This document shows, piece by piece, positions 5,021 to 36,594 of a stretch of DNA of 64,000 nt (the first letter of the stretch is position 1; every line of letters begins with the position of its first letter). The translations under genes were made by a program, and so were the position numbers. The stretch covers positions 21,030 through 85,029 of the forward strand of contig JAJRTN010000039.1 of the NCBI GenBank assembly GCA_024278275.1, given 5' to 3'. The stretch comes from Candidatus Hydrogenedentota bacterium. Its GTDB lineage: Bacteria; Hydrogenedentota; Hydrogenedentia; Hydrogenedentales; JAJRTN01. The notes below the pieces were generated by a model that made no database searches, was not told the DNA's origin, and saw nothing but the letters and a program-made list of their open reading frames with translations.

Positions 5021-5046
5021 GATGCAGTTTGCTCCTTCACGCCGCC

Positions 5047-9995: not shown

Positions 9996-10045
9996 AGACT
10001 CCTGATGTTTCCTCTGCTGGGGTTAAAGGGTCCGAAGCGCGGCGT

Positions 10046-10070
10046 GGGTTCACGGCGAGCACAAACCTCT
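10046..10070. promoter_or_regulatory. CCGTTCACGG-core motif (type X), 51-75 nt upstream of the infA start
   Basis: gggttcacggcgagcacaaacctct. Same motif and same spacing as upstream of the DJ-1 gene (12165-12190). Confidence 0.5.
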
Positions 10071-10204
10071 CCCTTTCCGCCGCATGGCGGCACTCAGGGC
10101 ACCGCTTATGAAGTATATCATATCCCTTTGCACCGCGCACCCTTGGAGGCATTTGCAAAATTGGCGTTCTTCTTACGTACCCTTCTGGATGTTGCGGTCG
10201 AGAG

Positions 10205-10253
10205 AACCGTTCACGGAAATTCGGCGGGTCGTGCTCTCTGTGAACGGTTACCT
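10205..10253. promoter_or_regulatory. inverted pair of CCGTTCACGG-core motifs forming a 13-bp-stem hairpin
   Basis: aaccgttcacgga-N19-tctgtgaacggtt. The right arm with its flank, gtcgtgctctctgtgaacggttacc, is nearly identical to the reverse complement of 12165-12190. Confidence 0.5.
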
Positions 10254-10482
10254 GTTATTCAACGGCAAAGGGGCTTGTCGAGACGTCGCCGTGTCAACCA
10301 CCGTTTCCGGCCCGGATGTTTCACCAACGCCCTGTTGCGCAGGCGTACCCCGGCCCATCTCAGGGACTTGTCTCGTTCGGCGAACTCGACATGTATCTAC
10401 ACGCTATCGTCCGCCTCGCTCCGCCAAACCCCTGACCGGCCCCTCCGCACATGCTCACGACGAAGAGGATGAAATGTCCGGG

Positions 10483-11223
10483 CTAGCCTTCTTCAATCGT
10501 CAGGTGGATCTCCGCGGACGGGCTGTTGAAGATGCGCTTGGATTCGCCAACCCCCATGATGACGCTGCCCAGGAAGCGGGCGTCACCGCCTTCGACTCGG
10601 CTTTCGCTTTTGCTCTCGTTAAGTTTGTTCTCCTCGCCCGATTGTTCCCGGCCCAGGTGTCCCTCAAAGCGCAGCAGAACCCGGTCCCCCTCATCCAGCG
10701 GCATGACTTCGCCACGTATCTCGAAGGCACCCTCGCCGCCATGCTCGGTCTGCTCCCGTGCTTCCACATGGGCCGCCTCGCGCTCGTGGCGGTTTGCGCC
10801 CGCCTCGAAATGGCGCGTGGCGGTGAGAATGGACACCGAGCCGTGCAGCGTTTCGAAGATCAGACGCAGCGTGCGGCCCAGCATGCCCGGATCTTCGGGG
10901 CTTTCCCCGTGTTCTTCGGCCTCCTCCCGCGCATGGCGTTCCCGCGCTTCGCGCTCCTCCCGGGCCAACTGTTCCAACAGTTCCAAAGACCAATTATGAA
11001 CCTGGTCGAGCCGTTCGCCCAGCTCGGTGACAATGCGTTCACTGAACACGCGAAGGTCGTTTTCATCCACCTCCGCGAGTTGCACCATGGCCTCAGCCAG
11101 GTCCGCGTGGGTCCGGTCCAGGGCTTCCCGCGCATGGTCCATCATGGCGTCCCACTCTTGCGCAACCGCCGGTGAGGCCGCCACGAGAAGTGCCAAACAC
11201 AACGTAACAGCGATTTTTCGCAT
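10483..11223 (-). CDS. secreted hypothetical protein (signal peptide, acidic Glu/Arg-rich helical region)
   Basis: 246 aa, MRKIAVTLCLALLVAASPAVAQEW signal peptide. SD AGGAGGA before the ATG at 11223. Antisense partner ORF 10084..11175(+) looks non-coding. Confidence 0.6.
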   Translation of the reverse strand: MRKIAVTLCLALLVAASPAVAQEWDAMMDHAREALDRTHADLAEAMVQLAEVDENDLRVFSERIVTELGERLDQVHNWSLELLEQLAREEREARERHAREEAEEHGESPEDPGMLGRTLRLIFETLHGSVSILTATRHFEAGANRHEREAAHVEAREQTEHGGEGAFEIRGEVMPLDEGDRVLLRFEGHLGREQSGEENKLNESKSESRVEGGDARFLGSVIMGVGESKRIFNSPSAEIHLTIEEG

Positions 11224-11250
11224 GTCTTCATCCTCCTGACTGGTTGGGGG

Positions 11251-11532
11251 CTAATCGTCGATATAAAGTATGGCCCGCTTGCCTTCGATATTGGGCGGCA
11301 GGGGGGTGGAAACACGCAAAACGAGCTCGGCGCTCTTACCCCCACCCACGGTGACATCCAGGCGGTGCCCACCCGCATCGGCGTGCTTTCGCCCCACATG
11401 CACCGCCACGATTCGTCCCGTAAGACTGCGCGGCGGGGAAACCGGGGGAGACGCCGGCGTATGCGTGCCCAGACCGTCGATGGGTTCCTTGCCGCCTACC
11501 GGGGTGATATGGTCCCGAAACTCATCCGACAT
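11251..11532 (-). CDS. hypothetical small protein (93 aa)
   Basis: ATG at 11532 with SD GGAG. It sits 27 nt after the upstream gene and 28 nt before the downstream gene in the same orientation. Codon usage fits. No recognisable domain. Confidence 0.4.
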   Translation of the reverse strand: MSDEFRDHITPVGGKEPIDGLGTHTPASPPVSPPRSLTGRIVAVHVGRKHADAGGHRLDVTVGGGKSAELVLRVSTPLPPNIEGKRAILYIDD

Positions 11533-11558
11533 AATCGTCTCCGCCGCGGGAAACCGGG

Positions 11559-12110
11559 CTACGTTCGAACCAGTCCCGCTTCCACCGTGTCGCGCTGTTC
11601 TTTGCCCAGCAACGTCTCCACGATGGCCAAGGCAAAGTCCATGGCCGTGCCCGGCCCCCGTGAAGTGATCACCTTGCCATCCCGTTCCACGGCCGCACCC
11701 GTGCAGGTCAGGGCCGGGTACTTGCCGCCATCAATACATCCGGGGTACCCCGTCGCCCTTTTCCCATCCAGCAGACCGGCATTGGCCAAGACACGAGGCG
11801 CGGCACAGATGGCGCCAATGAATTTCCCGGCACCGGCCATGTCTTTTAAGATGCCGGTGATGCGCGGGTCCGCTTCCAGGTTATCCGTTCCCGGCAGACC
11901 GCCCGGAAGCACCACCATGTCGAAATTACCTTCGAGGGCCTGATCCAGGCCCATATCCGGGCATATGCACACGCCATGGGCTCCCTTGACACAATCCTTC
12001 GTGAGTCCCGCGGTCACCACGTCCAAATCGGCCCGGCGAAGCACGTCAACGATAGTAATGGCCTCGATCTCTTCACAACCTTGCGCCAGGGGCACGAGCA
12101 CTTTGGGCAT
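11559..12110 (-). CDS. DJ-1/PfpI (ThiJ) family protein
   Basis: Class I glutamine amidotransferase-like fold with the nucleophile-elbow Cys (AICAAP). Start MPKVLVPLAQG at 12110 after AGGAGGA; the track ORF starts 6 codons earlier. Confidence 0.85.
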   Translation of the reverse strand: MPKVLVPLAQGCEEIEAITIVDVLRRADLDVVTAGLTKDCVKGAHGVCICPDMGLDQALEGNFDMVVLPGGLPGTDNLEADPRITGILKDMAGAGKFIGAICAAPRVLANAGLLDGKRATGYPGCIDGGKYPALTCTGAAVERDGKVITSRGPGTAMDFALAIVETLLGKEQRDTVEAGLVRT

Positions 12111-12164
12111 GACCAATCCTCCTGTCACGGCCTGCGTTCCATGTCAGTTGACAAAGCCAGTCGG

Positions 12165-12190
12165 TAACCGTTCACGGAGAGCACAACCCT
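12165..12190. promoter_or_regulatory. CCGTTCACGG-core motif (type X), 55-80 nt upstream of the DJ-1 start
   Basis: taaccgttcacggagagcacaaccct. A partner motif in opposite orientation lies at 12336-12352 (ggatttccgtgaacag). Confidence 0.5.
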
Positions 12191-12423
12191 GCCCGTGCCG
12201 CCGGCACCAGGCTAAATAAGGGAAGGACAAACGCCCGCCTGTCTATTGACCGGGCGTGGAGAACCCTCAAAAGCGACCGCTTGGTGAACACAAAGCACCT
12301 GGCACCTACGGACGCGCGGGGTCGCGACACTACCGGATTTCCGTGAACAGCTTACGTCAATCTAAAGTTTAGCGCCAGCCCCGCGAGGTGTCAACCCCGC
12401 CCTTGTCCCAAATATATGCTTGC

Positions 12424-12453
12424 CTCTTCCTCCCGTCATTCCCGCGCACGCGG
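12424..12453. repeat. palindromic MITE-like repeat, copy B
   Basis: cgtcattcccgcgcacgcgggaatccacgg, in a 510-bp intergenic region. The artefact ORF 12369..12701 translates it as SRVRGNDG. Confidence 0.7.
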
Positions 12454-12639
12454 GAATCCACGGGAAAAGGTAAATTCCCGTAAGGGACCACCCTTCTGGC
12501 CTGTGTGGCGGCGAGAGGATTTGGCGCGGCGGGGCCGCAGGAATGCGTGACGATAGGGGCGAAACGCTCGCGACAGGCATGCCCACGTCGGGCCGTGGGA
12601 ACATGCGGAAAGGGTCTTGTCCGGCCCAACGTTCCCCGT

Positions 12640-14031
12640 CTACTGTGCCTCCAGGTCGTATTTCTGGAGCCGGTAGCGAAGGGATCGTGGTGTGAGGCCA
12701 AGCATGGCGGCGGCCTTTTTCTGCGAATAGCGGCTGGCCTCCAGGGCCTGTCGGATCAGGCGTGTTTCCGTTTCTTCGATGAGTGCTTCAAGATCGATAC
12801 CTTCGGGAGGCAACGAGACGACCGCGGGTTTTTCGACGGGCACGAAATCCTGAATATTCTGGGGCAGATCGCTCATTTTAATCACGTTGTCAGAGCACAG
12901 GGCCACGGCGCGCTCCATGATGTTGCACAACTCGCGCACGTTTCCCGGCCAGGTGTAGCGTTGCAGCGCGGCCATGGCGTCGGCGGCAATATCCATGTCG
13001 CCACGGCCCATGTTGTCGGCATGCCTTCGGATAAAATGCCGCGCCAGCAGGGGAATGTCGTCGGCGCGGTCGCGGAGGGGCGGCACATGGATCGGGATGA
13101 CATTCAACCGGTAATATAAATCATTGCGAAACGTGCCCTCTTCGGCCATTTTCGCCAGGTTGCGATTGGTAGCCGAGATGATTCGCACATCCACTTTGAT
13201 CTCCGATGTGCCCCCCACGGGCGTCACCGTGCTGTTGTCCAACACACGCAGCAGCTTCACCTGGAGCATGAGGGGCATCTCGCCGATTTCATCGAGGAAA
13301 ACGGTTCCGCCGCTGGCCACGACAAAGAGCCCCTCCTTGTCTTCAATGGCCCCGGTAAAGGCCCCGCGCTTGTGTCCAAACAATTCGCTTTCGAGAAGGT
13401 TTTCCGGAATCCCGCCGCAGTTGATGGCGACAAAAGGCTTGTCTACACGGTCACTCAGGTTATGCAGCGCCCGTGCCACCAGTTCTTTGCCCGCCCCGCT
13501 GTCACCGTGAATGGCAACCGTGCTCGGCAGCTTCGCCACGCGGCGAATCATGGAGAGCACTTCCTGAAAGGCGCTGCTCTGGCCGATCATATTTTCGATC
13601 TTGGCGCTGAGCTGCTGTTGCTTGCGCATGGCCACGTTTTCGCGGACCAGGTTGCGTTGGGCGATAGCGCGTTCGACCCGAAGCCGGATCTCGTCGTTAC
13701 TCTTGAAGGGCTTCTGGATGTAGTCCGTGGCGCCCCGCTGCATGGCCTCGACGGCCGTTTCCACCGAGCAGTGGGCGGTCATCATGATGGAGGGAGTCGT
13801 GGGAGCGTGCTCTTTCAGCCAGCTCAGCAGGGTGAGCCCCGCCTCGCGCTCGCTTCCCATGCGAAGGTCGGTCAACACCACGTCGAACTGCTTCTTCTGC
13901 AAAAGCGAAACGGCTTCGTCCACGCCGGAAACCGATTCCACCACGTGGCCGGCGTTCTCCAGCACGATTTCGAGCACTTCTCGCATACCCAATTCGTCAT
14001 CGACGACGAGCACCTGATATTGCACCGCCAT
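12640..14031 (-). CDS. pilR: sigma-54-dependent two-component response regulator (REC, AAA+ sigma-54 interaction, HTH), PilR-like
   Basis: Start MAVQYQVLVVDDE at 14031. HGDSGAGKELVARALH motif and C-terminal Fis-type HTH. Adjacent to the sensor kinase and pilB/pilT. The track ORF is over-extended to 14184. Confidence 0.85.
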   Translation of the reverse strand: MAVQYQVLVVDDELGMREVLEIVLENAGHVVESVSGVDEAVSLLQKKQFDVVLTDLRMGSEREAGLTLLSWLKEHAPTTPSIMMTAHCSVETAVEAMQRGATDYIQKPFKSNDEIRLRVERAIAQRNLVRENVAMRKQQQLSAKIENMIGQSSAFQEVLSMIRRVAKLPSTVAIHGDSGAGKELVARALHNLSDRVDKPFVAINCGGIPENLLESELFGHKRGAFTGAIEDKEGLFVVASGGTVFLDEIGEMPLMLQVKLLRVLDNSTVTPVGGTSEIKVDVRIISATNRNLAKMAEEGTFRNDLYYRLNVIPIHVPPLRDRADDIPLLARHFIRRHADNMGRGDMDIAADAMAALQRYTWPGNVRELCNIMERAVALCSDNVIKMSDLPQNIQDFVPVEKPAVVSLPPEGIDLEALIEETETRLIRQALEASRYSQKKAAAMLGLTPRSLRYRLQKYDLEAQ

Positions 14032-14051
14032 GTCCCGGTTGCTCCCTGGTT

Positions 14052-15707
14052 CTATGTGTCCGGCGTCTCCGTATCGTCTCCGCCACCCACCACCCGGGGA
14101 AGGCGAACCCGCATCGAAGTGCCGCCTTCCGGCCGTGCGGCCACCTGCATGGTCCCATCGTGGGAAGTCACAATGCGGAGACAAATGGCCAGCCCCATAC
14201 CGACGCCTCGCTCTTTCTCGGTGAAAAAAGGCTCAAAAATGCGTGACACCTTGTCCGGCGGGATTCCCGGCCCCTCATCATCGAAGCGGACTTCGGCCGG
14301 ACCGGCGTCCGTGAGCAGCGAGATGGTCAAGGTGCCCTGCTCGTGCATCGCCTCAATGGCGTTCTGACCGAGGTTAAGAAAAACCTGACGCAACTGCATG
14401 CGGTCCCCCAGCACCTCGACCACGGTCTCCGGGGTCCGCGTGGTAATACGCAGATCCCGGGCATGGGCAAACTGCCGTTCAAGATGGGCGCGCACGTTGT
14501 CCACCATGGCACTGAGATTCACGATGGTGTGGCGGCGGCTGGGATCCCGCGCGAAATCCAGGAATCCCGTCACGATATCATTCAAATGGTCGGACTCACG
14601 AATGGCGATATTGGCCAAGCGCTCCACCATGGCCGGCTTCTCCGTACCCCGGCGCAATTCTTCCATCGCCCCGCGAATAGCGGCCACCGGATTGCGTATC
14701 TCATGGGCCAGGCCGGCCGTCAGCTCGCCGATTACCGCCATCCGGTCCTGCTGTTGGAGGAGCTGACGCATGTGGGCCATCTCCGTCAAGTCGGTAAACG
14801 AGGCGATGAGGCCCGTAACAGCGCCGCGTGAATCACGCAAAGGGTTGGTGGTGAGTCCCAGCAATTTGGTTTCTTGTTCACCCACGCGGGCGTGAAACTC
14901 ATAACTGGTGAAATCCTTCTGGCTGCGCAGGGCGGTCACCACGGGATTCTCGGCGCCGCTTTCCGGCATTATGATGCCTTCCACGTGACGTCCCGCCACG
15001 TTCCCTTCATCGACGCCCAGAATATGGCAGGCCGCCCGGTTCATGGCGATCACCAGTCCCTTGGTGTCGCAGATCAGGAATCCACTGCTCAGGTTGTCGA
15101 GGATCTCCCGCTGAAACTGCTTCATCCCGCTGACGCGCTGATTCCAATAGCCGCTTATGAAGGCCGTAAAGAAGAATCCAATCACGAGAATGAGAAAGTG
15201 ATACCAGTGGGTCAGGGGGTCGTCGCTCCGCGGCGTGGATACGGCGAAATGGAAAAACATGAACAACGAGGAGAGCGTGGCGAAAACAAAGCCCTGGCTG
15301 AGTCCCATGAGGACACCCGCCTCCAGGATGACCGTCACCAGTAGGAAGGTAAAGAAACTCTTTTCCGCGCCACTAAAGCTGATGGTAATGGCCACCACGC
15401 CAAAATCCACCATCATCTGCATCCAGGTGAGGGCGGGGTTGACTCCCGGCCGCCCCCGCAGCGACACCAGGTACCAGATGCCGCTGGCGCAGGCCGCCAG
15501 GTAAACCCCCGTGAGAAGGAACAGATAACGCTCCTCCGCGGCCACCAGGTGGGCGCCCGTGGCCACCACGAGCAGCAGACCCAGGCGGGCCGCGCCCACG
15601 AACCAGAGCCACGATACGGGGCCGTCGTAGGAAGGCGCCAGGAAGCCGAACGTTGCGGGAACCTTAAACGCCCCGCCCGATGATTGTAACGACGTCTTCC
15701 GGGTCAC
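14052..15707 (-). CDS. pilS: membrane sensor histidine kinase (multi-TM, PAS, HisKA, HATPase_c), PilS-like
   Basis: 551 aa, about 6 N-terminal TM helices, H-box GLAHEIRNP, G-box near the C-terminus. GTG start overlaps the upstream pilT stop (GTGA). Confidence 0.85.
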   Translation of the reverse strand: MTRKTSLQSSGGAFKVPATFGFLAPSYDGPVSWLWFVGAARLGLLLVVATGAHLVAAEERYLFLLTGVYLAACASGIWYLVSLRGRPGVNPALTWMQMMVDFGVVAITISFSGAEKSFFTFLLVTVILEAGVLMGLSQGFVFATLSSLFMFFHFAVSTPRSDDPLTHWYHFLILVIGFFFTAFISGYWNQRVSGMKQFQREILDNLSSGFLICDTKGLVIAMNRAACHILGVDEGNVAGRHVEGIIMPESGAENPVVTALRSQKDFTSYEFHARVGEQETKLLGLTTNPLRDSRGAVTGLIASFTDLTEMAHMRQLLQQQDRMAVIGELTAGLAHEIRNPVAAIRGAMEELRRGTEKPAMVERLANIAIRESDHLNDIVTGFLDFARDPSRRHTIVNLSAMVDNVRAHLERQFAHARDLRITTRTPETVVEVLGDRMQLRQVFLNLGQNAIEAMHEQGTLTISLLTDAGPAEVRFDDEGPGIPPDKVSRIFEPFFTEKERGVGMGLAICLRIVTSHDGTMQVAARPEGGTSMRVRLPRVVGGGDDTETPDT

Positions 15708-16780
15708 GCCGTTCCTTTATCGATCAGGTGTTGCAGTCCTTCGGGGTCGGAGCTGCGTTTAAAAGCCATGTCTGTGGTGATAATACCGCGCCGCATAAGG
15801 CGGTACAGCGATTGGTTCATGGTACACATTCCCTCGCCCTTTCCGATCTCGATCATGGAAGGAATCTGCTCCAGTTTTTCGGCGCGAATAAGAGAGCGGA
15901 TGGCGGGATTGGCGAGCATGACCTCCATGGCCAGCGCGCGGCCCATGCCGTCGGCACGGGGAATGAGCTGTTGCACCACGACGGCTTCCAGTACGAAAGA
16001 AAGCTGCGTCCGTACCTGATCTTGCTGCGAGGCGGGAAACACGTCGATAATACGGTTCATGGTCTGAAGGGCGTCGTTCGTGTGGAGTGTCGCAAAAGCG
16101 AGGTGGCCGGTTTCCGCCACCGTAAGCGCCGCCTGGATGGTTTCCGTATCCCGCATTTCACCGATGAGTATAACATCCGGATCCTGTCGCAGCACCCGCT
16201 TCAGGGCGTCGGAAAAGGAATTCGTGTCCGCGTGTATTTCTCGCTGATTTACCACCGCGCGGTTATGCCGATGAAGGTACTCGATGGGGTCCTCGATGGT
16301 GATAATGTGCACGTTGCGCTCGCGGTTGATCTTGTCCACGATGGCGGCCAGGGTGGTGGATTTGCCGCTGCCCGTCGGCCCGCACACCAGGACCAGTCCA
16401 ACGGGGTAGTCGGCGAATTCCGAGATCACGCGGGGCAGCCCCAGTTGCTCGAAAGAGAGGATTTCGAAAGGAATCGCCCGGAAAGCCGCCACCACCGAGC
16501 CGCGGTCACGGTAGACATTGAGGCGAAAACGGCTCAGTCCCTCGACACCGAAAGACATGTCGCATTCCCGTGTCTCCTCGAATTCGGAGATCTGCTCCTC
16601 ATTCATGACACTGTAAATGATTTCCTGCGTTTGATCCGCATTGAGCCGCTCGTACCCGGTCAGGGCCTCCAGGCCGCCGTGGATACGAATCATGGGCGGC
16701 CCCCCCACCACGATATGAAGGTCGCTCGCCCCTTCCTGGATCATCTTGGTCAGCAGTTCTTTTATCGTTGGCGTGGCCAT
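15704..16780 (-). CDS. pilT: twitching motility / retraction ATPase PilT (second copy)
   Basis: 358 aa, [21 protein letters not shown]. Confidence 0.92.
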   Translation of the reverse strand: MATPTIKELLTKMIQEGASDLHIVVGGPPMIRIHGGLEALTGYERLNADQTQEIIYSVMNEEQISEFEETRECDMSFGVEGLSRFRLNVYRDRGSVVAAFRAIPFEILSFEQLGLPRVISEFADYPVGLVLVCGPTGSGKSTTLAAIVDKINRERNVHIITIEDPIEYLHRHNRAVVNQREIHADTNSFSDALKRVLRQDPDVILIGEMRDTETIQAALTVAETGHLAFATLHTNDALQTMNRIIDVFPASQQDQVRTQLSFVLEAVVVQQLIPRADGMGRALAMEVMLANPAIRSLIRAEKLEQIPSMIEIGKGEGMCTMNQSLYRLMRRGIITTDMAFKRSSDPEGLQHLIDKGTA

Positions 16781-16830
16781 ACCCTTGTTTCCTCCCGCGT
16801 TATCGCGCGTGGCCCTGTCATCAATCGCAG

Positions 16831-16917
16831 GCGTTCACGGTCCCGTTGCGGGTGCCACACGCACCCGACGCGAAATCCCGCCAATCCACAGGTTTTCCAA
16901 GGTCGTGAACAGTTACC
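16831..16917. promoter_or_regulatory. inverted pair of CCGTTCACGG-core motifs in the pilB-pilT intergenic region
   Basis: gcgttcacgg at 16831-16840 (48-60 nt upstream of the pilT start) and gtcgtgaacagttacc at 16902-16917. Confidence 0.45.
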
Positions 16918-16918
16918 A

Positions 16919-18643
16919 TCAGTCCTCCATCGTATGCTCCAACACCTGTTCGATGGAGGACAAACCCTTGGCCGCCTTGGCCAGTGCGTTTTGGCGAAGC
17001 GACTTCATCCCGCAACGAATGGCCGCCTCCTTAATCTCGTAGCCCGTGGCGTTCTTGAGCACCAGGGGGTGAATCTCGGGCCAGTTCAGCAACACTTCCG
17101 TGGCGGCGACCCGCCCGCGATAACCCGTTTCCTTGCATTTGCCGCATCCACGCCCCCGCACGAAGGTGGGTTTCTCGATGTAATCGAACGGCTTGAACTG
17201 AATCCGGTCCAGCACGTCCTGGGGAACCATAATGGGTTCCTTACACTCGGCGCACACCCGCTTAAGCAAACGCTGGGCCGCCGCCAGGGCAACGGACGAT
17301 TGTACCAAAAAGGGTTCGATCCCCATGTCGATGAGACGGGGAAACACGCCCGGCGCGTCGTTGGTGTGCAGCGTGCTGAGCACGAGGTGTCCCGTCAGCG
17401 CCGCCTTCACGGCCACGTCCGCCGTTTCACCGTCTCGAATCTCGCCGACCATCACCACATCCGGGTCCTGGCGCAGAATCTGGCGAAGCGCCTGGGCAAA
17501 GGTAAAACCAATGGCTGACTGCACCTGGACCTGGTTCACCCCGAACAATTCATACTCGATGGGATCTTCGACCGTTACCAGATTGCTCTCAACCCGGTTC
17601 AATTCATGGAGTGCACTATAGAGCGTGGTCGTTTTACCGCTACCCGTCGGCCCCGTGAGCAGTATCATTCCGTGGGGCATTTTCAGGGCCTCGGCAAAGG
17701 CTTCCATGGGCTGAGGCTCAAATCCCAGTTTCTCCAGGTCCAGGGTCAGATTGCCTTGGTCAAGCACGCGGAGCACGATCTTCTCCCCGAACTTGGTGGG
17801 CAGAAAACCCACGCGAAAATCGATTTCACGGCCCTTGTAGCGAATACGGAACCGCCCGTCCTGGGGAAGGCGGTGTTCGTCGATACGGCAGCCCGCCAGG
17901 ATCTTGAAGCGGGCGATAATGTTGTGTTGAAGCGATTTGGGCGGGGCCTTCGCTTCTTCAAGCGTACCGTCAACGCGGTAACGGATCCGGATGAGTTTTT
18001 CAAAGGGCTCGAAATGGATGTCGCTCGCATCGCGCTCCAGGGCATTGAAGAGGATGAGCCGCGCCAGCTTTTTTACCGGCTCGTCCTCCGAACCGGCTTC
18101 CAGTTTTGACACGTCCTCAATGTCATCCTGCTCTTTCAATTCCTCCATCTTTTCCGCGTCACTATCCTGGCCGACAAGCGAATCGTACAGGTTTTCGGCC
18201 GCGTCGCCACCATAGTTTCGCTCAATGGCATCGGCCAATTCCGAGGCCACGGCGACCACCGGCTCGATGTCATAGCTGATCAGCATGCGCAGGTCGTCCA
18301 GCGCCATGATGTTCAGCGGGTCGGCCATGGCGAGGGTGAGCACGTCGCCCGTAACGGACACGGGCAGCATGAGGTACTGGCGCGCCAGGGTTTCGGGCAC
18401 TTCGGCCAAGACCTCTTTGGGAATCGAATAGTGGGCAACGCGGATATGGGGTATGCCGAGTTGCTCACTGAGGGTAATCACCAGATCTTCTTCCGAAAGA
18501 TAGCCCCTCTCCACGAGAAGACTGGGCAGACTCTGGCCCGAGCTGCGGTGAAGAGCGATGCACTCGCGCAACTGTTCCTCGGTAACAAGCTTCTGTTCGA
18601 GAAGCATGTCGGGAAGTCGTTTCCTGGGAATCCTGGTGGCCAA
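16919..18643 (-). CDS. pilB: PilB-type type IV pilus assembly ATPase (second cluster)
   Basis: 574 aa, N-terminal GspE_N-like domain, Walker A GPTGSGKTTTLYS, C-terminal CAEC...CGKC. Confidence 0.92.
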   Translation of the reverse strand: MATRIPRKRLPDMLLEQKLVTEEQLRECIALHRSSGQSLPSLLVERGYLSEEDLVITLSEQLGIPHIRVAHYSIPKEVLAEVPETLARQYLMLPVSVTGDVLTLAMADPLNIMALDDLRMLISYDIEPVVAVASELADAIERNYGGDAAENLYDSLVGQDSDAEKMEELKEQDDIEDVSKLEAGSEDEPVKKLARLILFNALERDASDIHFEPFEKLIRIRYRVDGTLEEAKAPPKSLQHNIIARFKILAGCRIDEHRLPQDGRFRIRYKGREIDFRVGFLPTKFGEKIVLRVLDQGNLTLDLEKLGFEPQPMEAFAEALKMPHGMILLTGPTGSGKTTTLYSALHELNRVESNLVTVEDPIEYELFGVNQVQVQSAIGFTFAQALRQILRQDPDVVMVGEIRDGETADVAVKAALTGHLVLSTLHTNDAPGVFPRLIDMGIEPFLVQSSVALAAAQRLLKRVCAECKEPIMVPQDVLDRIQFKPFDYIEKPTFVRGRGCGKCKETGYRGRVAATEVLLNWPEIHPLVLKNATGYEIKEAAIRCGMKSLRQNALAKAAKGLSSIEQVLEHTMED

Positions 18644-18727
18644 AATATGTGTCCTTCTCCGCCATCCTGGTGACGTACATCAAAAACATTCGGGGGATGG
18701 ACCACCGTCCATACACGGCTCACGGCA

Positions 18728-21127: not shown

Positions 21128-21551
21128 TGGAATGACACACCGTCAAACAAAAACACTTTACAAACCAAGCGCATATCTCGCACTTTTATAATACGCTTAC
21201 CGGGCGGCCTGTAAGCCTTGGGCAGCAAGGCGCATGTTGTCACTTGACCGGGCGTGCTTCTCCCCCAGAAATGGAATCTCCTGACGGATGCAGGTATTCG
21301 ACACCTTTGGCGCACGGGAGCACGTCCCTGCCGAATTCCCGTAATAGGGTTGCTCATTATCGAACGTGGGGGGAAACCAATCCCCGTACCCGGGCGGACG
21401 GTGAAACAGCAGCGGCGCGGAAGTGGCAAAGGGTTTGTAAACAATTTCCTCAAGATTCCTTACCAACCAACCGTGTCCTTGGCCTGGCCACCGGGAAATA
21501 GGGTAGGATACGCACCTTGCCAGACCCCAACCCGGAAGCATTAGGTACGCC

Positions 21552-27105: not shown

Positions 27106-27299
27106 GACTCTTGTGAAATGGAGGAGTTTTTTACGTGCCATCCCTGGGACCGCCTCCGGTCCTGCCATTATCGCATGGCGCGACGGGTCAAACCGCGGTA
27201 CCAGGCTTCTTCCTCCTTGCCGGAAACCGGCTTGGCACCAGGTTCGCCGGCCTTGAGGCTCGGATCATTCCAAAAGGCGTGTCAACAGGGATCCCGTTT

Positions 27300-27650
27300 A
27301 TGCAGTATGTAAAAGTGGCCAAAGTGGGCGATTTTGAGCAAACCCATGTCCGCTCCTACCGGCTCCTGGCGCGCCCCGTGGGGGTGTTCAAGGAGCCGGA
27401 TGGGTCGTTTTATGCCATGGAGGTGGGGTGCAAGCACGAGAATGCCGATCTGACCCAGGGTAGGATCGAGGGGAACATGGTGACCTGTCCGTGGCACGGT
27501 TGGCAATACGACCTGAAAAGTGGTGAATGCCTCCGGGGCACCACGGCGCGGCTGCGGCGTCATGGGTTGAAGATCGAGGGCGAAGATATTTTCGTTACCT
27601 TACGGCCTTTGCCGGAGAATGGCCCGGAAAGCGACGGGGGTGCATGGTAG
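27300..27650 (+). CDS. Rieske [2Fe-2S] domain protein (NirD-like small Rieske ferredoxin)
   Basis: Start MQYVKVAKVGDF. CKHENADL and CPWHGWQYD give the CxH...CxxH Rieske ligands. Confidence 0.8.
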   Translation: MQYVKVAKVGDFEQTHVRSYRLLARPVGVFKEPDGSFYAMEVGCKHENADLTQGRIEGNMVTCPWHGWQYDLKSGECLRGTTARLRRHGLKIEGEDIFVTLRPLPENGPESDGGAW

Positions 27651-27732
27651 AGCCGCCTCGGACCGTAACGGTGGGGCACGTTCGCTTCCGGGCAGCGTGG
27701 GGAGATTTCGTCCGGCGCGAGCCGCGCGGCGG

Positions 27733-29028: not shown

Positions 29029-29669
29029 GCGACCCCGTTCAGGAGATAATCGGCCACCGGCCCCAAATCATCGAAAACGGCCTCCGGTGAAAGGGCTTCG
29101 AGTTCTGGTCGGGCCAGGTAGCCCGTGGCCACGGCGATGCAACGCACCCCCGCCGCGCGGGCCGCTTTCACGTCGAAATCCATGTCGCCCACGAAAACCG
29201 TTTCCTCCGCCCTCACGCCAAGGGCCTTCATCGAAACATACAGCGCTTCCGGGTCAGGCTTCGGGTTTGTCACCTCGTCCGGGCCAACGCGGGACTCGAA
29301 GTAGTCCAGCACGCCCAGGTGTTCGAGCAGCATCTCCGACATAGCCCGCTTCTTCGAAGTGGCGAAACCGATCTTCAGGCCCGCCTCATGAATGGCCGAG
29401 AGCGTGGATTCGACCCGGGGAAGAAGAAAGGTCTTTTCGCAGGCGTGTTCGCGGTAATGTTCCTGGTAGAGGGGCACCAGGGCCGTGGCGTCGCGGCCCA
29501 GAACCTTGCTCAAGTGGTCCACCAGGGTAAAGCCGACAAGGTCCACGATGCGCTTTCGCGTCGGACGGGGCGCGCCCACCGCTTCGAAGGCGTGTATGCA
29601 CGACGCCACGATAGCATCCGTAGAATCGATAATGGTGCCGTCCAGGTCGAATACAACTGCTTTCAGCAT
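29025..29669 (-). CDS. HAD-superfamily hydrolase (phosphoglycolate phosphatase-like)
   Basis: MLKAVVFDLDGTIIDS (motif I DxDGT), FVGDMDFD (motif IV). Confidence 0.85.
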   Translation of the reverse strand: MLKAVVFDLDGTIIDSTDAIVASCIHAFEAVGAPRPTRKRIVDLVGFTLVDHLSKVLGRDATALVPLYQEHYREHACEKTFLLPRVESTLSAIHEAGLKIGFATSKKRAMSEMLLEHLGVLDYFESRVGPDEVTNPKPDPEALYVSMKALGVRAEETVFVGDMDFDVKAARAAGVRCIAVATGYLARPELEALSPEAVFDDLGPVADYLLNGVA

Positions 29670-29700
29670 GGGGTCCCCGATGGTTCTTTCTCATTCCCAC

Positions 29701-29755
29701 GTTCCCCCGTGGGAATGCCTGTTCCCGCCTTCGCGGAAATGACGGTTGAGAGGTG
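29701..29755. repeat. palindromic MITE-like repeat, copy C (subfamily 2)
   Basis: tcattcccacgttcccccgtgggaatgcctgttcccgccttcgcggaaatgacgg, intergenic between the HAD gene and purN. Confidence 0.65.
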
Positions 29756-29815
29756 TTGCCCGGGGTTCTCCTGTCCGGCAAGCCCCGTGCCGAAACACCG
29801 GGCAACCATCCTGCC

Positions 29816-30430
29816 TCAACGCACCCGAACAATACGCCCTTCCACACGCAACCGTCCTTCCGCGAAAAGTTGAATGGCCTTGGGAAAGATTTCGCGTTCC
29901 TTTGCCTGCACCCGTTCCGCCAGGGTGTCCGGCGTGTCCCCCTCAAGTACGGGCACCGATGCCTGCATGACAATCGGGCCGCTGTCGTATTCTTCATCAA
30001 CGAAATGGACCGTGGCGCCGCTCAGCTTCGCGCCATAGGCCAAAACGGCCTCATGTACGTGGTGGCCATACATGCCCTTGCCGCAGAACGCGGGGATCAG
30101 CGCCGGGTGTACATTCATGATGCGGTGGCGGAAATCCTCGGGCACGGTGAGGAGGGACATGAAACCCGCCAGCACCACCAGGCCGGGCGAATACTTGCGC
30201 ACTTCGTTCCACAGCGCGGCGTTGAAGGCCGCGTTGTCGGGGTAGTTCCGGGGAATGACGGCGATGGCGGGGATATGGTGGTTCCGCGCCCGTTCGAGGC
30301 CGAAAGCCTTTTCCCGCGATCCGATGACACACGCGACCTCCGCCGCCAGGTCGCCCGCCTGAATGTGATCGATGAGATTCTGCAAGGTGGTTCCGCCGCC
30401 CGATAGCAGCACGGCCATGCGTAGCGCCAT
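29816..30430 (-). CDS. purN: phosphoribosylglycinamide formyltransferase
   Basis: 204 aa, MAVLLSGGGTTLQNLID and NVHPALIPAFCG, as in PurN. Confidence 0.9.
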   Translation of the reverse strand: MALRMAVLLSGGGTTLQNLIDHIQAGDLAAEVACVIGSREKAFGLERARNHHIPAIAVIPRNYPDNAAFNAALWNEVRKYSPGLVVLAGFMSLLTVPEDFRHRIMNVHPALIPAFCGKGMYGHHVHEAVLAYGAKLSGATVHFVDEEYDSGPIVMQASVPVLEGDTPDTLAERVQAKEREIFPKAIQLFAEGRLRVEGRIVRVR

Positions 30431-30465
30431 GGTTGATTTCCTTCGCGTTTTATGGTTTCCTCGCG

Positions 30466-30496
30466 CTCATTCCCACGGCCCCCGCGGGGATGCGTG
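30466..30496. repeat. palindromic MITE-like repeat, copy D (subfamily 2)
   Basis: ctcattcccacggcccccgcggggatgcgtg. Confidence 0.6.
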
Positions 30497-30541
30497 TCGC
30501 AGACGTCCCGCCTGCATCCTACCAAATACCGGGCCGGACGT

Positions 30542-30724
30542 TCACAGGAGCCGAAGCACCAGTACCGCCACGAAGGCCGCCACCGTCGCAACAATCCAGA
30601 AGGTCCGGCAGGGCCAGCAAACCCGGGCCGCCTCGGCCGCGCCCAGGAAATGGTAGCACTCGGGACAGGCCCGCGAAGTCGCGGGGATCTCCTGCCCGCA
30701 CTTGGGACAGCGCATCATCTCCAT
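30542..30724 (-). CDS. small zinc-ribbon / single-TM protein (60 aa), hypothetical
   Basis: MEMMRCPKCGQEIPATSRACPECYHF (CxxC...CxxC) followed by a hydrophobic helix. Sits tightly between dapF and purN. Confidence 0.4.
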   Translation of the reverse strand: MEMMRCPKCGQEIPATSRACPECYHFLGAAEAARVCWPCRTFWIVATVAAFVAVLVLRLL

Positions 30725-30730
30725 GCAATG

Positions 30731-31573
30731 CTATTCCTCCGTGGGCCATTCACCGGTGAACACCTCCGTCGCGGGTCCTTCCTGGTATACGCACCCGTCC
30801 TCCGCCCATTCAATGGTGAGCACGCCGAAGGCGAGATGAACGTTTACACGCCGGACGGTGCGATCCGTGATCATGGACGCAAGCGCCGCGCCGCAGGATC
30901 CGCTGCCGCTGGCCATGGTAATGCCACTGCCCCGTTCCCAGATCCGCATGACGATGTTTTCACGATCCATGACGCTCACCCACTCCACGTTCGTCCGCCG
31001 GGGGAAGCTGGGGTGGTTTTCCACCTTGGGACCGAGGGTGGCGAGGTCCACCCGGGTGGCGTCCTCGACAAAGATCACCGCGTGGGGGTTGCCGATGTTG
31101 GCGCAGGTCACCCGCACCGTGCGGTCGTCCAGTTCCAGCGTTTCCTCCAGCACCCGGCCCTCCGGACCGATCATGGGAATCTCCCCCCGCTCGAAGCGGG
31201 GCTTGCCCATGTTCGACCGCACCGTGACGACCCGTCCGTCTTCCACCCGCAATTCCACGGTGTTCGGTCCGGCCAGGGTGTCGATGACAAAGCGGGTCCT
31301 GTCCGTCATGCCGCGCTCGTAGACATACTTGGCAAAACAGCGGATGCCATTGCCGCAGGTTTCCGCCTCGCTGCCATCGGCATTGAAGATACGCATGGCG
31401 AAATCATGGGTATCGCTCGGCAGGACCAGGATGATTCCATCCGACCCGGCGCCGAGATGGCGGTGGCTCATGCGGCGTGACAATTCGGCCGGGTCGACGA
31501 CGGGATACTTCGCGCCGTCGATAAAGTGGTAGTCGTTGCCCAGCCCGTGCATCTTGGTAAAAACGATGCCCAT
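30731..31573 (-). CDS. dapF: diaminopimelate epimerase
   Basis: 280 aa, FTKMHGLGNDY and CGNGIRCFAKY active-site Cys motifs. Start overlaps the ddl stop. Confidence 0.9.
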   Translation of the reverse strand: MGIVFTKMHGLGNDYHFIDGAKYPVVDPAELSRRMSHRHLGAGSDGIILVLPSDTHDFAMRIFNADGSEAETCGNGIRCFAKYVYERGMTDRTRFVIDTLAGPNTVELRVEDGRVVTVRSNMGKPRFERGEIPMIGPEGRVLEETLELDDRTVRVTCANIGNPHAVIFVEDATRVDLATLGPKVENHPSFPRRTNVEWVSVMDRENIVMRIWERGSGITMASGSGSCGAALASMITDRTVRRVNVHLAFGVLTIEWAEDGCVYQEGPATEVFTGEWPTEE

Positions 31574-32592
31574 CAGGTGTTTCCTTTCTTGTGTCGCGCC
31601 CGGCGCAGGGCGTCTTCCACCAGCAACCCGGCCAAGTCGCCGTAGGAGATCCCCGCGGCGGCCGCCGCCTGCGGGAACAAGGAGGTCGGCGTGAGACCGG
31701 GAATCGTGTTCACCTCGATCCAGACCGGACCCTCCGGCCCCAGGAGGAAGTCACTTCGGCTCCACCCCGTGCATCCCACGATTTCATGCGCATGGGCGGC
31801 CATCTCGGACACCTGGTCGGCCACCTCGGGCTCCAGGTCCGCCGGGGTAATCTCCTTGCAGGCCCCTGCCGTGTACTTCGCCTCGAAGTCGAAGAAAGAT
31901 CCCGGCCTGGGACGAATTTCCGTAATCGGCAATGGCCGGAGCAGGCCGCCGGAATCGGCGTCGAGCACCGCGCAGGTCAGCTCGCGCCCCGCGATGTACT
32001 GCTCCACCATCACGTAGTCGTCCGTGTCGAAGGCGGCGTTCATGGCCCCGTCGAAGTCCGCCGCGTTCCCGGCGATGGCGATGCCAAAGCTCGACCCCTG
32101 GGCGGAAGGCTTCACCACGCAGGGGAAGCCTAAATCCTCGCTCACGGCCCGGCGCACCGTGTCCGCCGATACGGCCCAAGTAGGCCGGTCGAGCGCCACA
32201 TGGCCCGCCACGCGGATGCCCTGCGCCTCGACCACGGCCTTGCAGCGTACCTTGTCCATGGCCAGGGCGCTCGCGGCACAGCCCGAGCCCGTGTAAGGCA
32301 GGCCCAGCAGGTCGAGCAATCCCTGAATACGGCCGTCCTCGCCAAAAGTGCCGTGGAGCGCAAGAAAAACGGCATCCACGCCAAGGGCCGATAACTGTTG
32401 CACCGCGTCCGCGAGAGGAACCGGGGCCGCGCCCTCGAAAGACCATAGCCCCGCGCGCGATATCACCACGGGTGTTACCACGAAGGACGCTCCGTCCAGC
32501 GCTTCGACCACGCCCCGCCCCGACTTCAGCGAAACGTCATGCTCCAGGCTCGGTCCACCCATGAGCACGGCGATGTGGGTCTTGGTGGTCAT
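31573..32592 (-). CDS. ddl: D-alanine--D-alanine ligase
   Basis: Start MTTKTHIAVLMGGPSLEHDVSLKSG at 32592 after GGGAAGGGG, ATP-grasp fold. The track ORF is over-extended to 32646. Confidence 0.9.
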   Translation of the reverse strand: MTTKTHIAVLMGGPSLEHDVSLKSGRGVVEALDGASFVVTPVVISRAGLWSFEGAAPVPLADAVQQLSALGVDAVFLALHGTFGEDGRIQGLLDLLGLPYTGSGCAASALAMDKVRCKAVVEAQGIRVAGHVALDRPTWAVSADTVRRAVSEDLGFPCVVKPSAQGSSFGIAIAGNAADFDGAMNAAFDTDDYVMVEQYIAGRELTCAVLDADSGGLLRPLPITEIRPRPGSFFDFEAKYTAGACKEITPADLEPEVADQVSEMAAHAHEIVGCTGWSRSDFLLGPEGPVWIEVNTIPGLTPTSLFPQAAAAAGISYGDLAGLLVEDALRRARHKKGNT

Positions 32593-32793
32593 GTTCTTCC
32601 CCTTCCCGGGAGGGCACAAAGATGCCTGTCCCGCATTGGGTCCCAACCTTTCCTGGACCGCCCGAAAACGGGAAAGACGGTAATGGATCAGGGCGGGGGA
32701 GATTATACGGCACGCGCCATCCCTGCCGCCACGGGATGTGCTACGATAGACTCGTTTCGCATGGGAGTTGCGAAAAAACGAGGTGTGCCCGCC

Positions 32794-33603
32794 ATGAATA
32801 CGTACAAAATTGCTTTGTCATGCCTGCTTTTGGCGGGGCTGACCGGATGTGTAACCCCCGCCGGTCAACCGTCGAAGGCCGCCCCGGACCGTGCCGGGAA
32901 AACCGCGGCCGTCGTCCCCATGGAGCCCGGGAATGCCGAAACGCAATACCACCACGGCAATGAACTTTTCGACGCGGGCCGCTATGCGGAGGCGGCGGCG
33001 GCCTATAAGACCGCGACCCGGCTCAAGCCGGACTATGCCGATGCTTTCACCAACCTGGGCCTTTCCCTGCGGCGGTTGGAGCGTTTTGAAGAAGCGAACG
33101 CGGCCTATGAACGCGCCCTGGCGCTTCAACCCGGCGACGTAACCACGTTGCGCAACCGGAAAGCCCTGGCGGAGGTGACGAACGATAAGGCACGCTATGC
33201 CGATTGCGTGCGGCGTCTGGCCGCGCTGCTGCCCGACGATCCCGTTGCCTTGCGGGATATGGCGGACCTGCTCCTGGCCGAGGAAAAGTACGCGCGTGCC
33301 GCTGAAGGCTATGAGCGGCTGGTCCTTGCCGGGGCCACCGACGCGGACCTTTTCTACAACCTGGGCCTATGCCATCTCCGTCTCAACCATTTTGAGGCCG
33401 CGGAGGCCGCCTGGAAGAAAGCGCTCCATGCCGACGCCCGCCATGCGGCTTCAAGCCGTGGCCTCGCGGTGCTCTACTGGACCACCGGCGATTACACGCA
33501 GGCCTGGGCCATGGTGTCCCAATGCCGCCGCCTTGATATCCGTGTTGATCCTGATTTTCTGGATATTCTCCGCCGGGATTCAGGGAAGAAGACGGCCCTG
33601 TAA
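32794..33603 (+). CDS. TPR-repeat lipoprotein
   Basis: Start MNTYKIALSCLLLAGLTGC (lipobox LTGC). Multiple TPR units (YHHGNELFDAGRYAEAAAAYKTA...). The track ORF is over-extended to 32539. Confidence 0.75.
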   Translation: MNTYKIALSCLLLAGLTGCVTPAGQPSKAAPDRAGKTAAVVPMEPGNAETQYHHGNELFDAGRYAEAAAAYKTATRLKPDYADAFTNLGLSLRRLERFEEANAAYERALALQPGDVTTLRNRKALAEVTNDKARYADCVRRLAALLPDDPVALRDMADLLLAEEKYARAAEGYERLVLAGATDADLFYNLGLCHLRLNHFEAAEAAWKKALHADARHAASSRGLAVLYWTTGDYTQAWAMVSQCRRLDIRVDPDFLDILRRDSGKKTAL

Positions 33604-33722
33604 GGGCACTGCCAAATTGACACGAAACAGCTCCTTCTTTCGGGTGTATACTGTGAATGTAAGTGTTACGGCGGCGGCCACCTCGTGGTTGCTCCTGAAA
33701 CAGCGAAAGAGGAGTCCCTGTC

Positions 33723-36509
33723 ATGCGTAGATTCCTGTTACTGCCCATCGTTGTGCTTCTGATCCTGGGGATCGCGGGTTGCCCGTGGCTTCCCCTGCCC
33801 AATCGACAGTTTACTTCAGCGGACCGCTTTGGCGGACGCAATGTTGGTGTTTTTGGTGATGCCGGGAGCGAAGGGGAAGGCGAGGTTGAAGGTGACGCGC
33901 CCGCCGCGGCCCAGCGCGACGTGGTCGAACCGGACGTTATTCGTCAGGATGGCGACCTCCTGTATGTACTCAACCAGTATCGCGGGTTATCCATTGTCGA
34001 CCTGGCCGGTGAATCCGTTCTTGCCCAGTTGCCCACTTTTGGCTATCCCCGCGATCTCTACCTGGTGGATTCCCGGGCTTATGTGCTCGTGGGCTATGCC
34101 CGGCAGGCGGTGGTCGAAGGAAACGTCGTGCGCGTCGACGTGGGTTCCCGGCTCTACGTGGCCGATGTATCCGACCCGGCCAACGCTTCGGTGGTGGCCT
34201 CCTTCGATCTGGAGGGCGACCTCATCGACAGCCGCCTGGTGGGCGACGTGCTCTATGCCGTGGGCGCGCGCTATTCCTGGGCCATTGAAGGCGACGTGGT
34301 GATGAAGGAGCAAACCAGCGAATCCTGGGTCACCAGCATTGCCGTGGGCGACCCGGAAAACATCGCGGTGGTGGACAGCCTTGGTATTCCGGGCATAGGC
34401 AATACCATCCAGGTAAGCTCGGAAGCCATTTTCGTGGCCTCGGCCGACTGGTACAGCGACAATGGCGACGTGACCACGATTTCCTATATCGACATCAGCG
34501 ATCCGTCGGGAATCATTGCCACGGGAGGCAGCGTGAACGTGCCGGGCTACATCGCCGACCGTTTCAAGCTGGATGCGTGGAACGGCGTGCTTCGGGTGGT
34601 GTCGAACACCCGTTGGCCCAGCCGGGAAGTTTACGTCACCACGGTGGACCTCGCCGACCCGCAACATCTGGCCATCCTCGGACAAACCGCCCTGGAAAGC
34701 GCTTCGGGGGAAGCCCTCTTCGCGGTGCGTTTTGACGGCCCGCGGGCCTACGTGGTGACTTACCTGGTGGTTGATCCCCTGTTTATCATCGACCTCGCCG
34801 ATCCGGCGCACCCCAACGTGGCGGGTGAATTGATGGTGCCGGGCTGGTCCACCCATATCGAGATCGTCCATGGCCGGCTCGTGGCCTTGGGCGTGGATGA
34901 CACGGACGGGCGTCAGGTAAAGGTCAGTCTTTACGACGTGGACGATCCGCAAGCGCCCGCCGAGGTGGACACGGTGAGCTTTGGCAGTGGCTGGGCCTGG
35001 TCGTCGGCCTTCTCCGACGTGAAGGCTTTCACGGTACTCGACGACATGCTCATCGTGCCGACCAGCGGCTGGGAGGAGGCAACGGGTCGTTTCGACCGGC
35101 TCCAGTTCATCTCCTATGACCCCGGTCACCTGGCGCTCCGGGGCACGGTGGACGTGCAGGGCGACATCCTTCGCTCGTTCCGTCACGGGGACCAGTACTA
35201 CGGCGTCACCACCGAGCAGGTGGCGGTCATTGACGCGGCGGACCCGGACGCACCGAGCGTGGTGAACACCATCACCCTCGCCGAGTACCTGTATGACTAC
35301 TTTGAACTGAGCGACACGACGAACGCGGCGGTCGTGGCCAGAACCGAACGGAACGAGGTGGCCGTCCGCACGGAAACCGCCGGAGGCGATATGCTGGGCG
35401 AAATCACGGTTCACCTCGCCGGCATCATCGCCGCCGAGGCGACAGCGGATCGCGTGGCGCTGGTGGGGACGAACTGGGATGCCGAAACCTACGAAAGCAC
35501 CTATCGCGTGGTGATTGTCGATGTCAGCGATCCCGCGGCACCTGCGGTGCTGGCGGACCTGAGTTCCAATGTTGCCCCATGGTGGAACTACTGGTGGGGA
35601 TGCTACGACTGCTGGGGACCCGAGGTGGACGTGGGCATGGGCATGGAGGAAAGAACCAAGCAGTTTGCCGACATGTTCTACATGCCGTGGTTCGGTGGGG
35701 AGGACAGCGCCCTGCTGGCCGGGGATTACCTGGTGCTGCGCGGCCAGGCCGACAGCTACGACGTGACCTTCGGCGACGGGCGGCCCGAGCAGGGGCTGCT
35801 GGTCGTGGACCTGGCATCGGGCGCGATCACCCACACCATCGGCCTGGGCTTCGAACAGGTCATCAGCGTGAATACGGCGGGCGGCAGGATTTACCTGGGC
35901 ACGAAGGAAACGCTCGGGGTTGACGTGGACCCCCGTCCTCAATGCGCCCTGTACATCAGCGAACTGGACCTGGACGGACCGTCCCTGGGCGTTGCCGCCA
36001 ACGTACCCGGCACCTTTGTCCAGTATGCCCCCGAAACGGGCGTGTTGCTCCTGCAGGACTGGCAGTATGACGGCGGATTCATGGAATGGAACGTCACGCA
36101 GAGTCTTCGTACCGTCATCTGGGAAGGGGGTGATACGGAGACGGTGATGGCGGTGGACGAATACGTTCTGCCCGATTACGCCGGATCCATTGTGGGCGCC
36201 GGCAGCCGGGCCTATTACCAGTACTACGACGGCGGCTCCATTGTCGCATCGATCCGGGTGAGTCCCATGGGGCTCCTCTCCGATGGCGGCAGTCTTCCGG
36301 CCAATCCGTCGGGGGGCTATCTGCTGGCGGCCAAGGAAAGCACGGCCTTCCTCTCCATGGGTAACGCCATCGCCACCTATGATTTCACGGCGACACCGAC
36401 GCTCACCGATCTGACCGAAACCATGGGCTGGCCGTCCCACGTGCGTTTCGGCACCCATACCGCCTATGCCCCCCTGGGCTACGCGGGCCTTGCAACGTTG
36501 CCCTACTGA
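33723..36509 (+). CDS. large secreted lipoprotein with LVIVD repeats (beta-propeller)
   Basis: 928 aa, signal MRRFLLLPIVVLLILGIAGC. Repeated LYVADVSDPANASVV, FIIDLADPAHPNVAG, VVIVDVSDPAAPAV (LVIVD-type). Unusual Trp/Cys segment WWNYWWGCYDCWGPE. Confidence 0.8.
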   Translation: MRRFLLLPIVVLLILGIAGCPWLPLPNRQFTSADRFGGRNVGVFGDAGSEGEGEVEGDAPAAAQRDVVEPDVIRQDGDLLYVLNQYRGLSIVDLAGESVLAQLPTFGYPRDLYLVDSRAYVLVGYARQAVVEGNVVRVDVGSRLYVADVSDPANASVVASFDLEGDLIDSRLVGDVLYAVGARYSWAIEGDVVMKEQTSESWVTSIAVGDPENIAVVDSLGIPGIGNTIQVSSEAIFVASADWYSDNGDVTTISYIDISDPSGIIATGGSVNVPGYIADRFKLDAWNGVLRVVSNTRWPSREVYVTTVDLADPQHLAILGQTALESASGEALFAVRFDGPRAYVVTYLVVDPLFIIDLADPAHPNVAGELMVPGWSTHIEIVHGRLVALGVDDTDGRQVKVSLYDVDDPQAPAEVDTVSFGSGWAWSSAFSDVKAFTVLDDMLIVPTSGWEEATGRFDRLQFISYDPGHLALRGTVDVQGDILRSFRHGDQYYGVTTEQVAVIDAADPDAPSVVNTITLAEYLYDYFELSDTTNAAVVARTERNEVAVRTETAGGDMLGEITVHLAGIIAAEATADRVALVGTNWDAETYESTYRVVIVDVSDPAAPAVLADLSSNVAPWWNYWWGCYDCWGPEVDVGMGMEERTKQFADMFYMPWFGGEDSALLAGDYLVLRGQADSYDVTFGDGRPEQGLLVVDLASGAITHTIGLGFEQVISVNTAGGRIYLGTKETLGVDVDPRPQCALYISELDLDGPSLGVAANVPGTFVQYAPETGVLLLQDWQYDGGFMEWNVTQSLRTVIWEGGDTETVMAVDEYVLPDYAGSIVGAGSRAYYQYYDGGSIVASIRVSPMGLLSDGGSLPANPSGGYLLAAKESTAFLSMGNAIATYDFTATPTLTDLTETMGWPSHVRFGTHTAYAPLGYAGLATLPY

Positions 36510-36583
36510 GGGATGATCCCAACCTGGATTCCACCCCGCCGGGCTTGCCTATCCGTGCCCGGCGGGGTATCCTTGTCGGCACG

Positions 36584-36594
36584 GTTCACAGACA
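36584..36594. promoter_or_regulatory. CCGTTCACGG-core motif copy, 33-44 nt upstream of the orphan pilT
   Basis: cggttcacaga (compare accgttcacaga at 10237-10249). Confidence 0.3.

Follow-up and report, generated by a model that had tools for sequence, protein, structure and literature searches.

Probable miniature inverted-repeat insertions with shared termini at three intergenic sites of an uncultured Hydrogenedentes genome

A 64,000-nucleotide stretch of DNA from a Candidatus Hydrogenedentota bacterium, referred to here as the window (G+C content, 61%), carries copies of a short motif upstream of infA, upstream of a DJ-1/PfpI gene and in the spacer between the pilus genes pilB and pilT. PilT homologues with 80-93% identity carry the source label Candidatus Hydrogenedentes. 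An earlier note on this DNA offered two readings of the motif, namely an operator for a dimeric regulator linking pilus, translation and stress genes, or the terminal inverted repeats of miniature mobile elements. The copies described below very probably bound small non-coding insertions of the miniature inverted-repeat transposable element (MITE) type, as their terminal inverted repeats, and an undescribed MITE-like family in Candidatus Hydrogenedentes is the best reading of the locus.

Inverted termini at three intergenic sites

The core of the motif is not enriched in the window. With at most one mismatch, the core 10-mer CCGTTCACGG gave 13 matches against 8.8 ± 3.3 in shuffled sequence. 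The earlier note had named a frequency no higher than expected from composition as a ground for refutation, and the count within the window goes against an operator in this respect. For longer strings, GGTAACCGTTCACRGAGAGCAC occurred twice with 0 expected, and GGTAACCGTTCACG with up to two mismatches occurred four times against 0.39 expected, a number reached in 0/100 shuffles. All four of these matches fall in the three intergenic regions. The above-chance signal is the longer asymmetric terminus GGTAACCGTTCACGG(AGAGCAC), which is arranged in inverted pairs at the three intergenic sites.

These termini delimit three elements, E1, E2 and E3 (Table 1). The ends in the window match the 15-nt consensus GGTAACCGTTCACGG at 11-15 of 15 positions, except for the decayed end A3 (9/15), and conservation of the motif is asymmetric, extending over 19-27 nt. 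An inverted match of 27 nt (93%) joins 10226-10252, at the infA site, to 12163-12189, at the DJ-1 site. A3 retains 21 nt that are 90% identical to 12170-12190, and its outermost 7 nt have diverged. The gap between arms ranges from 21 to about 180 bp. The GAGAG-bearing end faces the gene in E1 and faces away from it in the mini-element E2', so both orientations are represented.

The copies listed in the earlier note were found again, some of them at sites offset by 1-2 nt, and the inverted pairing that it described holds at the three intergenic sites. The 13-bp-stem hairpin that it placed at 10205-10249 was likewise recovered, with 12/13 positions complementary. One further copy, at 36584, has about 9-10/15 positions in common with the consensus and lies 38 nt before its ATG. 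As a 9-mer in the opposite orientation and without an inverted partner, it was therefore dropped as chance-level.

Table 1. Coordinates of the elements, their ends and border repeats, and of the surrounding genes. Positions refer to the window unless another contig (L093, L095, L096) is named.
Feature	Position	Strand	Sequence	Border repeats	Remarks
E1	12163..12355	+		CCAGTC / TCAATC, 4/6	193 bp; 5' leader of the DJ-1 operon; inverted ends; repeat allows a 1-nt indel in the right end
E1, left-type end	12163-12189		GGTAACCGTTCACGGAGAGCACAACCC
E1, right end	12341-12355		CCGTGAACAGCTTAC
E2	10046-10252			none detectable, 0-2/6	207-bp stretch upstream of infA; bounded by A3 and the end at 10226-10252
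E2'	10202..10252	minus		none detectable	51-bp mini-element; two ends plus 21 nt between; 13-bp-stem hairpin
E2', end	10252-10238	minus	GGTAACCGTTCACAG
E2', end	10202-10216	+	GAGAACCGTTCACGG
A3	10046..10068	+	GGGTTCACGGCGAGCACAAACCT	none detectable	solitary or degenerate left-type end; inverted relative to 10226-10252
E3	16826..16917	minus		ACTGAT / ATTGAT, 5/6	92 bp; pilB-pilT spacer; begins on the pilB stop codon
E3, end	16917-16903	minus	GGTAACTGTTCACGA
E3, end	16826-16840	+	CGCAGGCGTTCACGG
E3, left border copy	16918..16923	minus	ACTGAT		overlaps the pilB stop codon
E3, right border copy	16820..16825	minus	ATTGAT		5/6 versus left copy
L093 element	2681-2817			AGCATT / AGCATT, 6/6	both ends 15/15 to GGTAACCGTTCACGG
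L095 element	2060-2236			GACGCG / GACGCT, 5/6	inverted ends
L096 element	9927-10093			4/6	inverted ends
pilB	16919-18643	minus
pilT	15704-16780	minus
PilS-like kinase and PilR-like sigma-54 activator	12640-15707	minus
Putative sigma-70-type promoter, DJ-1 operon	12366..12394	minus	TTGACA-17-TAAACT		10/12 consensus positions; outside E1, directly upstream
DJ-1/PfpI gene	ATG at 12110	minus			followed by two hypothetical genes
infA	9777-9995	minus
Glutamine cyclotransferase gene		minus

Copies of the termini in other sequence collections

A metagenome scan with the 19-mer GGTAACYGTTCACRGAGAG returned seven loci (L092-L098). At three of them (L093, L095 and L096), all on high-GC contigs, the 19-mer and an inverted copy bound an intergenic element of 137-177 bp. 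When all six elements were aligned, the ends were conserved and nothing else was, and pairwise BLAST gave no significant similarity among the six interiors. The genes that neighbour the three metagenomic elements code for an ABC permease, solute-binding proteins and a DUF4159 protein; they are functionally unrelated and show no common theme.

The remaining four 19-mer matches (L092, L094, L097 and L098) had no inverted partner or lay within coding sequence, had no adjacent transposase, and were set aside as chance or solo copies. A scan of a genome collection with GTTCACRGMGAGCACRAMCC gave 43 single matches in unrelated taxa, which were attributed to chance because none extended beyond the pattern, and 47 single matches in viral contigs were also taken as chance. 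BLAST of plasmids with E1 and with the terminus returned nothing useful. For 9900-17100, Rfam gave no match, whether judged by gathering score or with E allowed up to 10, and nothing of relevance was returned for the window or for L092-L098. A literature search on the motif strings matched only unrelated primers.

Border duplications and empty sites

Borders of the elements were set by the 15-nt consensus, two of them being adjusted by hand. In five of the six elements the 6-mers at the two borders match at 4-6 of 6 positions, against about 1.5 of 6 positions expected by chance (Table 1). These duplications bear on the proposal that the copies are repetitive extragenic palindromic (REP) sequences or bacterial interspersed mosaic elements (BIMEs) spread by an IS200/IS605-like transposase of the REP-associated tyrosine transposase (RAYT) type, or that GC-rich spacers happen to contain inverted repeats. 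The intergenic location would suit this proposal, and the 51-bp unit at 10202-10252 is palindromic. Units of REP or BIME type are stable palindromes of 20-40 nt. Single ends here, however, hold only a 4-bp/2-nt mini-palindrome and are not stable hairpins, whereas the elements possess true terminal inverted repeats and border duplications; elements mobilised by the IS200/IS605 type have neither terminal inverted repeats nor target duplications. Chance is ruled out by the shuffles and by independent recurrence in metagenomes. An origin of either kind can hardly be credited.

The sites were also compared with those of relatives after excision of the element and one duplication copy from the window. 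In the closest relatives, L099 and L100 (PilT 93% identical), the pilB-pilT spacer is 39 nt long and lacks E3. Without E3 and one copy of the duplication, the spacer of the window measures 42 nt, and the excised window is colinear with both relatives from the 3' end of pilB through the spacer into pilT. In L101 and L102 (88%), the pilB-pilT spacers differ and the motif is absent. At the DJ-1 site, the relative L044 (DJ-1 gene 82% identical) has the same promoter, GGTTGACA...GGCGCTAGACT, followed by a 53-nt leader without E1; the leader in the window would be about 62 nt after removal of E1. Synteny is lost at the E2 site, where contig L104, found via the neighbouring glutamine cyclotransferase gene, contains no infA. 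No copy of the terminus was present in about 50 kb of relatives' DNA.

Distances to start codons and the operator hypothesis

Read towards the gene, GTGAAC lies 52 nt before the start codon of infA, 59 nt before that of the DJ-1 gene and 52 nt before that of pilT, in agreement with the 50-75 nt given in the earlier note. Similar distances, inverted pairs and the near-palindromic core CCGT-NN-ACGG are what would be expected of operators at which a dimeric or DNA-looping transcription factor co-regulates infA, the DJ-1 gene and pilT. Against such operators stand the unenriched core (13 versus 8.8), conservation that is asymmetric over 19-27 nt, and arms separated by anything from 21 to about 180 bp, with no fixed half-site spacing. 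The comparison of orthologous regions suggested in the earlier note also went the other way, as the motif is missing from the pilB-pilT spacers of L099-L102 and from the DJ-1 promoter region of L044, that is, from five relatives' loci. Moreover, the insertion of E3 is clean and flanked by a duplication, and the same ends occur beside unrelated genes in other contigs. The operator hypothesis is largely refuted by the empty orthologous sites and is very improbable. The similar distances are better attributed, in large part, to target spacers of only about 40-60 nt than to an operator position. Readings of the motif as an ECF-sigma, sigma-54, CRP, LexA or CIRCE site were dropped after inspection by eye because the sequence flanking GTGAAC is not common to the sites. 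A tempting but false pilus-translation-stress regulon is thereby removed.

Probable insertion of MITE-like elements

The mobile-element alternative of the earlier note fared well. The copies delimit small non-coding segments with terminal inverted repeats and duplicated borders, a site is empty in close relatives, both orientations occur, and elsewhere the same termini enclose unrelated interiors. Element lengths of 51, 92, 193 and 207 bp (window) and of 137-177 bp (L093, L095 and L096) leave no room for a transposase gene. A putative transposase would recognise the ends, formed by the consensus GGTAACCGTTCACGG and reaching about 19-27 nt on one end, and would cut and paste segments of 51-210 bp with duplication of about 6 bp of target. 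Three such insertions would have taken place within 7 kb of this genome. E1 would have landed just past the point where transcription of the DJ-1 operon is predicted to start, E2 upstream of infA, where it would since have been rearranged or have decayed, and E3 on the stop codon of pilB, within what was originally a spacer of about 42 nt. Since each element follows a promoter or an upstream gene and precedes the next start codon, co-transcription into the mRNAs is probable, and the two ends could pair there.

Several observations weigh against this interpretation. The copies do not share their whole sequence; the six interiors, including the three from a single genome, show no relationship to one another. 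At E2 no border duplication could be detected, and one end has degenerated. Neither a transposase nor an autonomous element carrying such ends turned up in the window or among the genome, metagenome, viral or plasmid matches, the collection scans having used exact 15- to 20-nt patterns. Copies of the motif were counted within the 64-kb window. Lastly, GTGAAC is exactly 52 nt from the ATG in three elements (those at infA, at pilT and in L095), which is tighter than random insertion suggests. The coordinates concerned are 10048/9995 (infA), 16833/16780 (pilT) and 2229/2282 in L095 (DUF4159 gene), and the intervening sequences are unrelated.

The 52-nt spacing would also fit a co-option of inserted elements, either as long mRNA hairpins in the DJ-1 leader and the pilB-pilT spacer that would serve as processing, stability or attenuation signals, in the manner of the transcribed Correia elements of Neisseria, or through a host protein that binds the ends. 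Co-option would add a function to the mobile origin and not replace it. E1 lies wholly within the predicted 5' leader; counted from the start that the 12394-12366 promoter would give, it spans about +5 to +197. A 13-bp helix between its two ends closes a long predicted hairpin, irregular in structure and marginally better than shuffles (z = -1.97), and the ends of the elements in general are conserved while the interiors have fully diverged. The folds of E2 and E3, on the other hand, are no better than shuffles (z = -0.9 and -0.7), orientation is inconsistent, Rfam is without a match and the relatives do without the elements. Nor does the pattern of G-U versus A-C in the arms indicate a consistent strand. 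Co-option is, on this balance, unlikely. That the ends have been kept by selection for host use, as RNA-arm hairpins 52 nt before start codons or as sites for a domesticated-transposase protein, is quite unlikely; if true, the element would be a mobile regulatory module that rewires expression of the gene before which it lands.

As MITE-like insertions, the elements are a real feature with an ordinary explanation and not a regulon, of modest interest for annotation and for the pattern in which only ends are conserved. This is probably the first MITE-like family to be documented in Hydrogenedentes/Hydrogenedentota, a phylum without cultured members. Insertions of this kind make leaders and operon spacers longer, can change how an mRNA folds, mislead the prediction of regulons from motifs and mark recent genome change in metagenome-assembled genomes. 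The combination of conserved ends with unrelated interiors is an odd trait that could help to find the mobilising transposase.

Promoters, other repeats and neighbouring genes

The promoter of the DJ-1 operon, in the window a strong promoter-like site, is predicted in both the window and L044, where its counterpart reads GGTTGACA-N17-TAGACT. The common form GGTTGACA-N17-(GGCGC)TAnACT is kept at 12366-12394 (minus strand) of the window and at 805-834 of L044, despite neighbouring proteins that are only 54-58% identical to those of the window. At the infA site, an extended -10-like sequence, TGATATACT, is located at 10109-10117 (minus strand), inside E2 and about 115 nt upstream of infA. It was not listed by a strict promoter scan; if functional, it would place the infA promoter between the ends of E2.

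A second, unrelated repeat was also noted in the window. A perfect 20-nt palindrome, ATTCCCGCG-N3-GCGGGAAT, is present at 12438-12457, in the long pilR-DJ-1 spacer, and at 40558-40577, with weaker variants at 29721-29740, 8644-8663 and 40615-40634. This family gave nine strand-matches against 0.5 expected and looks like an REP-type extragenic palindrome. A related sequence, GCGCGGGAATGACG, occurs at about 243-256 of the relative's contig L104. The L044 contig carries at least three copies of a repeat of about 45 nt, ...TCGTTACGAAGTTGTACTTCGTGAMGCATYTGTAG..., together with a recurring GCAGTTTGGCAACGAG, at about 3250-3320, 3910-3965, 4100-4160 and 4240-4270, in spacers downstream of the DJ-1 operon. 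These repeats are a family distinct from the MITE-like elements.

Two further observations concern pilus genes. For the second PilT-like gene of the window, the probable start is not 36513 but an ATG near 36627 with GGGAG ahead of it. Between 36513 and about 36627, after the upstream open reading frame of 928 amino acids, lies an 11-bp GC-rich hairpin, CCCCGCCGGGC...GCCCGGCGGGG. In the relative L102, a restriction-modification cluster (XhoI-like, Eco57I/TaqI_C and N6_N4 methylase genes) occupies 1524-5524, just upstream of the pilus genes, and has no counterpart in the window.

Comparison with known mobile elements

Inverted repeats of the IS66 family of insertion sequences (IS) are 20-30 bp long, start with GTAAGCG and are accompanied by 8-bp duplications (PMC11946415); an example is the inverted repeat of ISPsk01, GTAAGCGTCCGGCGAACTCACCTT (PMC12888890). 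The ends described here, (G)GTAACCGTTCACGG, agree inexactly with this signature (GTAACCG, 6/7), as does one end of E1, GTAAGCTGTTCACGG (GTAAGCT, 6/7). Identity to the ISPsk01 inverted repeat is 12/24. When the borders were parsed for 8-bp repeats, matches of 7/8, 6/8, 7/8, 5/8 and 5/8 were obtained (30/40), the two outer positions matching in 6/10 cases. In L093, the cleanest element, the 6-bp duplication is perfect and an IS66-type 8-bp duplication matches only 7/8. No IS66-type transposase was found near any copy. A relationship to IS66 would be a lead only, because the cleanest element fits 6 bp better and because no transposase was found.

Among small repeats of other bacteria, Correia/NEMIS of Neisseria, ERIC/IRU of enterobacteria and RUP of Streptococcus pneumoniae are MITEs that are transcribed with neighbouring genes. 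Like Correia, ERIC and RUP, the elements of the window are non-coding, span only about 50-210 bp and combine terminal inverted repeats with short duplications of the target; they too are intergenic and occur in both orientations. Insertion between a promoter or upstream gene and a start codon is likewise frequent, and a long mRNA hairpin may form. The duplication is about 6 bp here, compared with the TA of Correia and RUP. In contrast to those families, only the 15-27-nt ends are common, the interiors are unrelated and the host is an uncultured member of the Hydrogenedentes.

Classical MITE families share their whole sequence. In type II MITEs and mobile insertion cassettes, by comparison, unrelated DNA is bounded by IS-like ends. 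The present elements lack the cargo genes, and no partner IS was identified for them, but as in type II MITEs and mobile insertion cassettes, their ends are conserved around interiors that are heterogeneous, unrelated and variable in length. Since only the ends are common, the family stands closer to type II MITEs or to cassettes bounded by IS ends than to a textbook MITE family.

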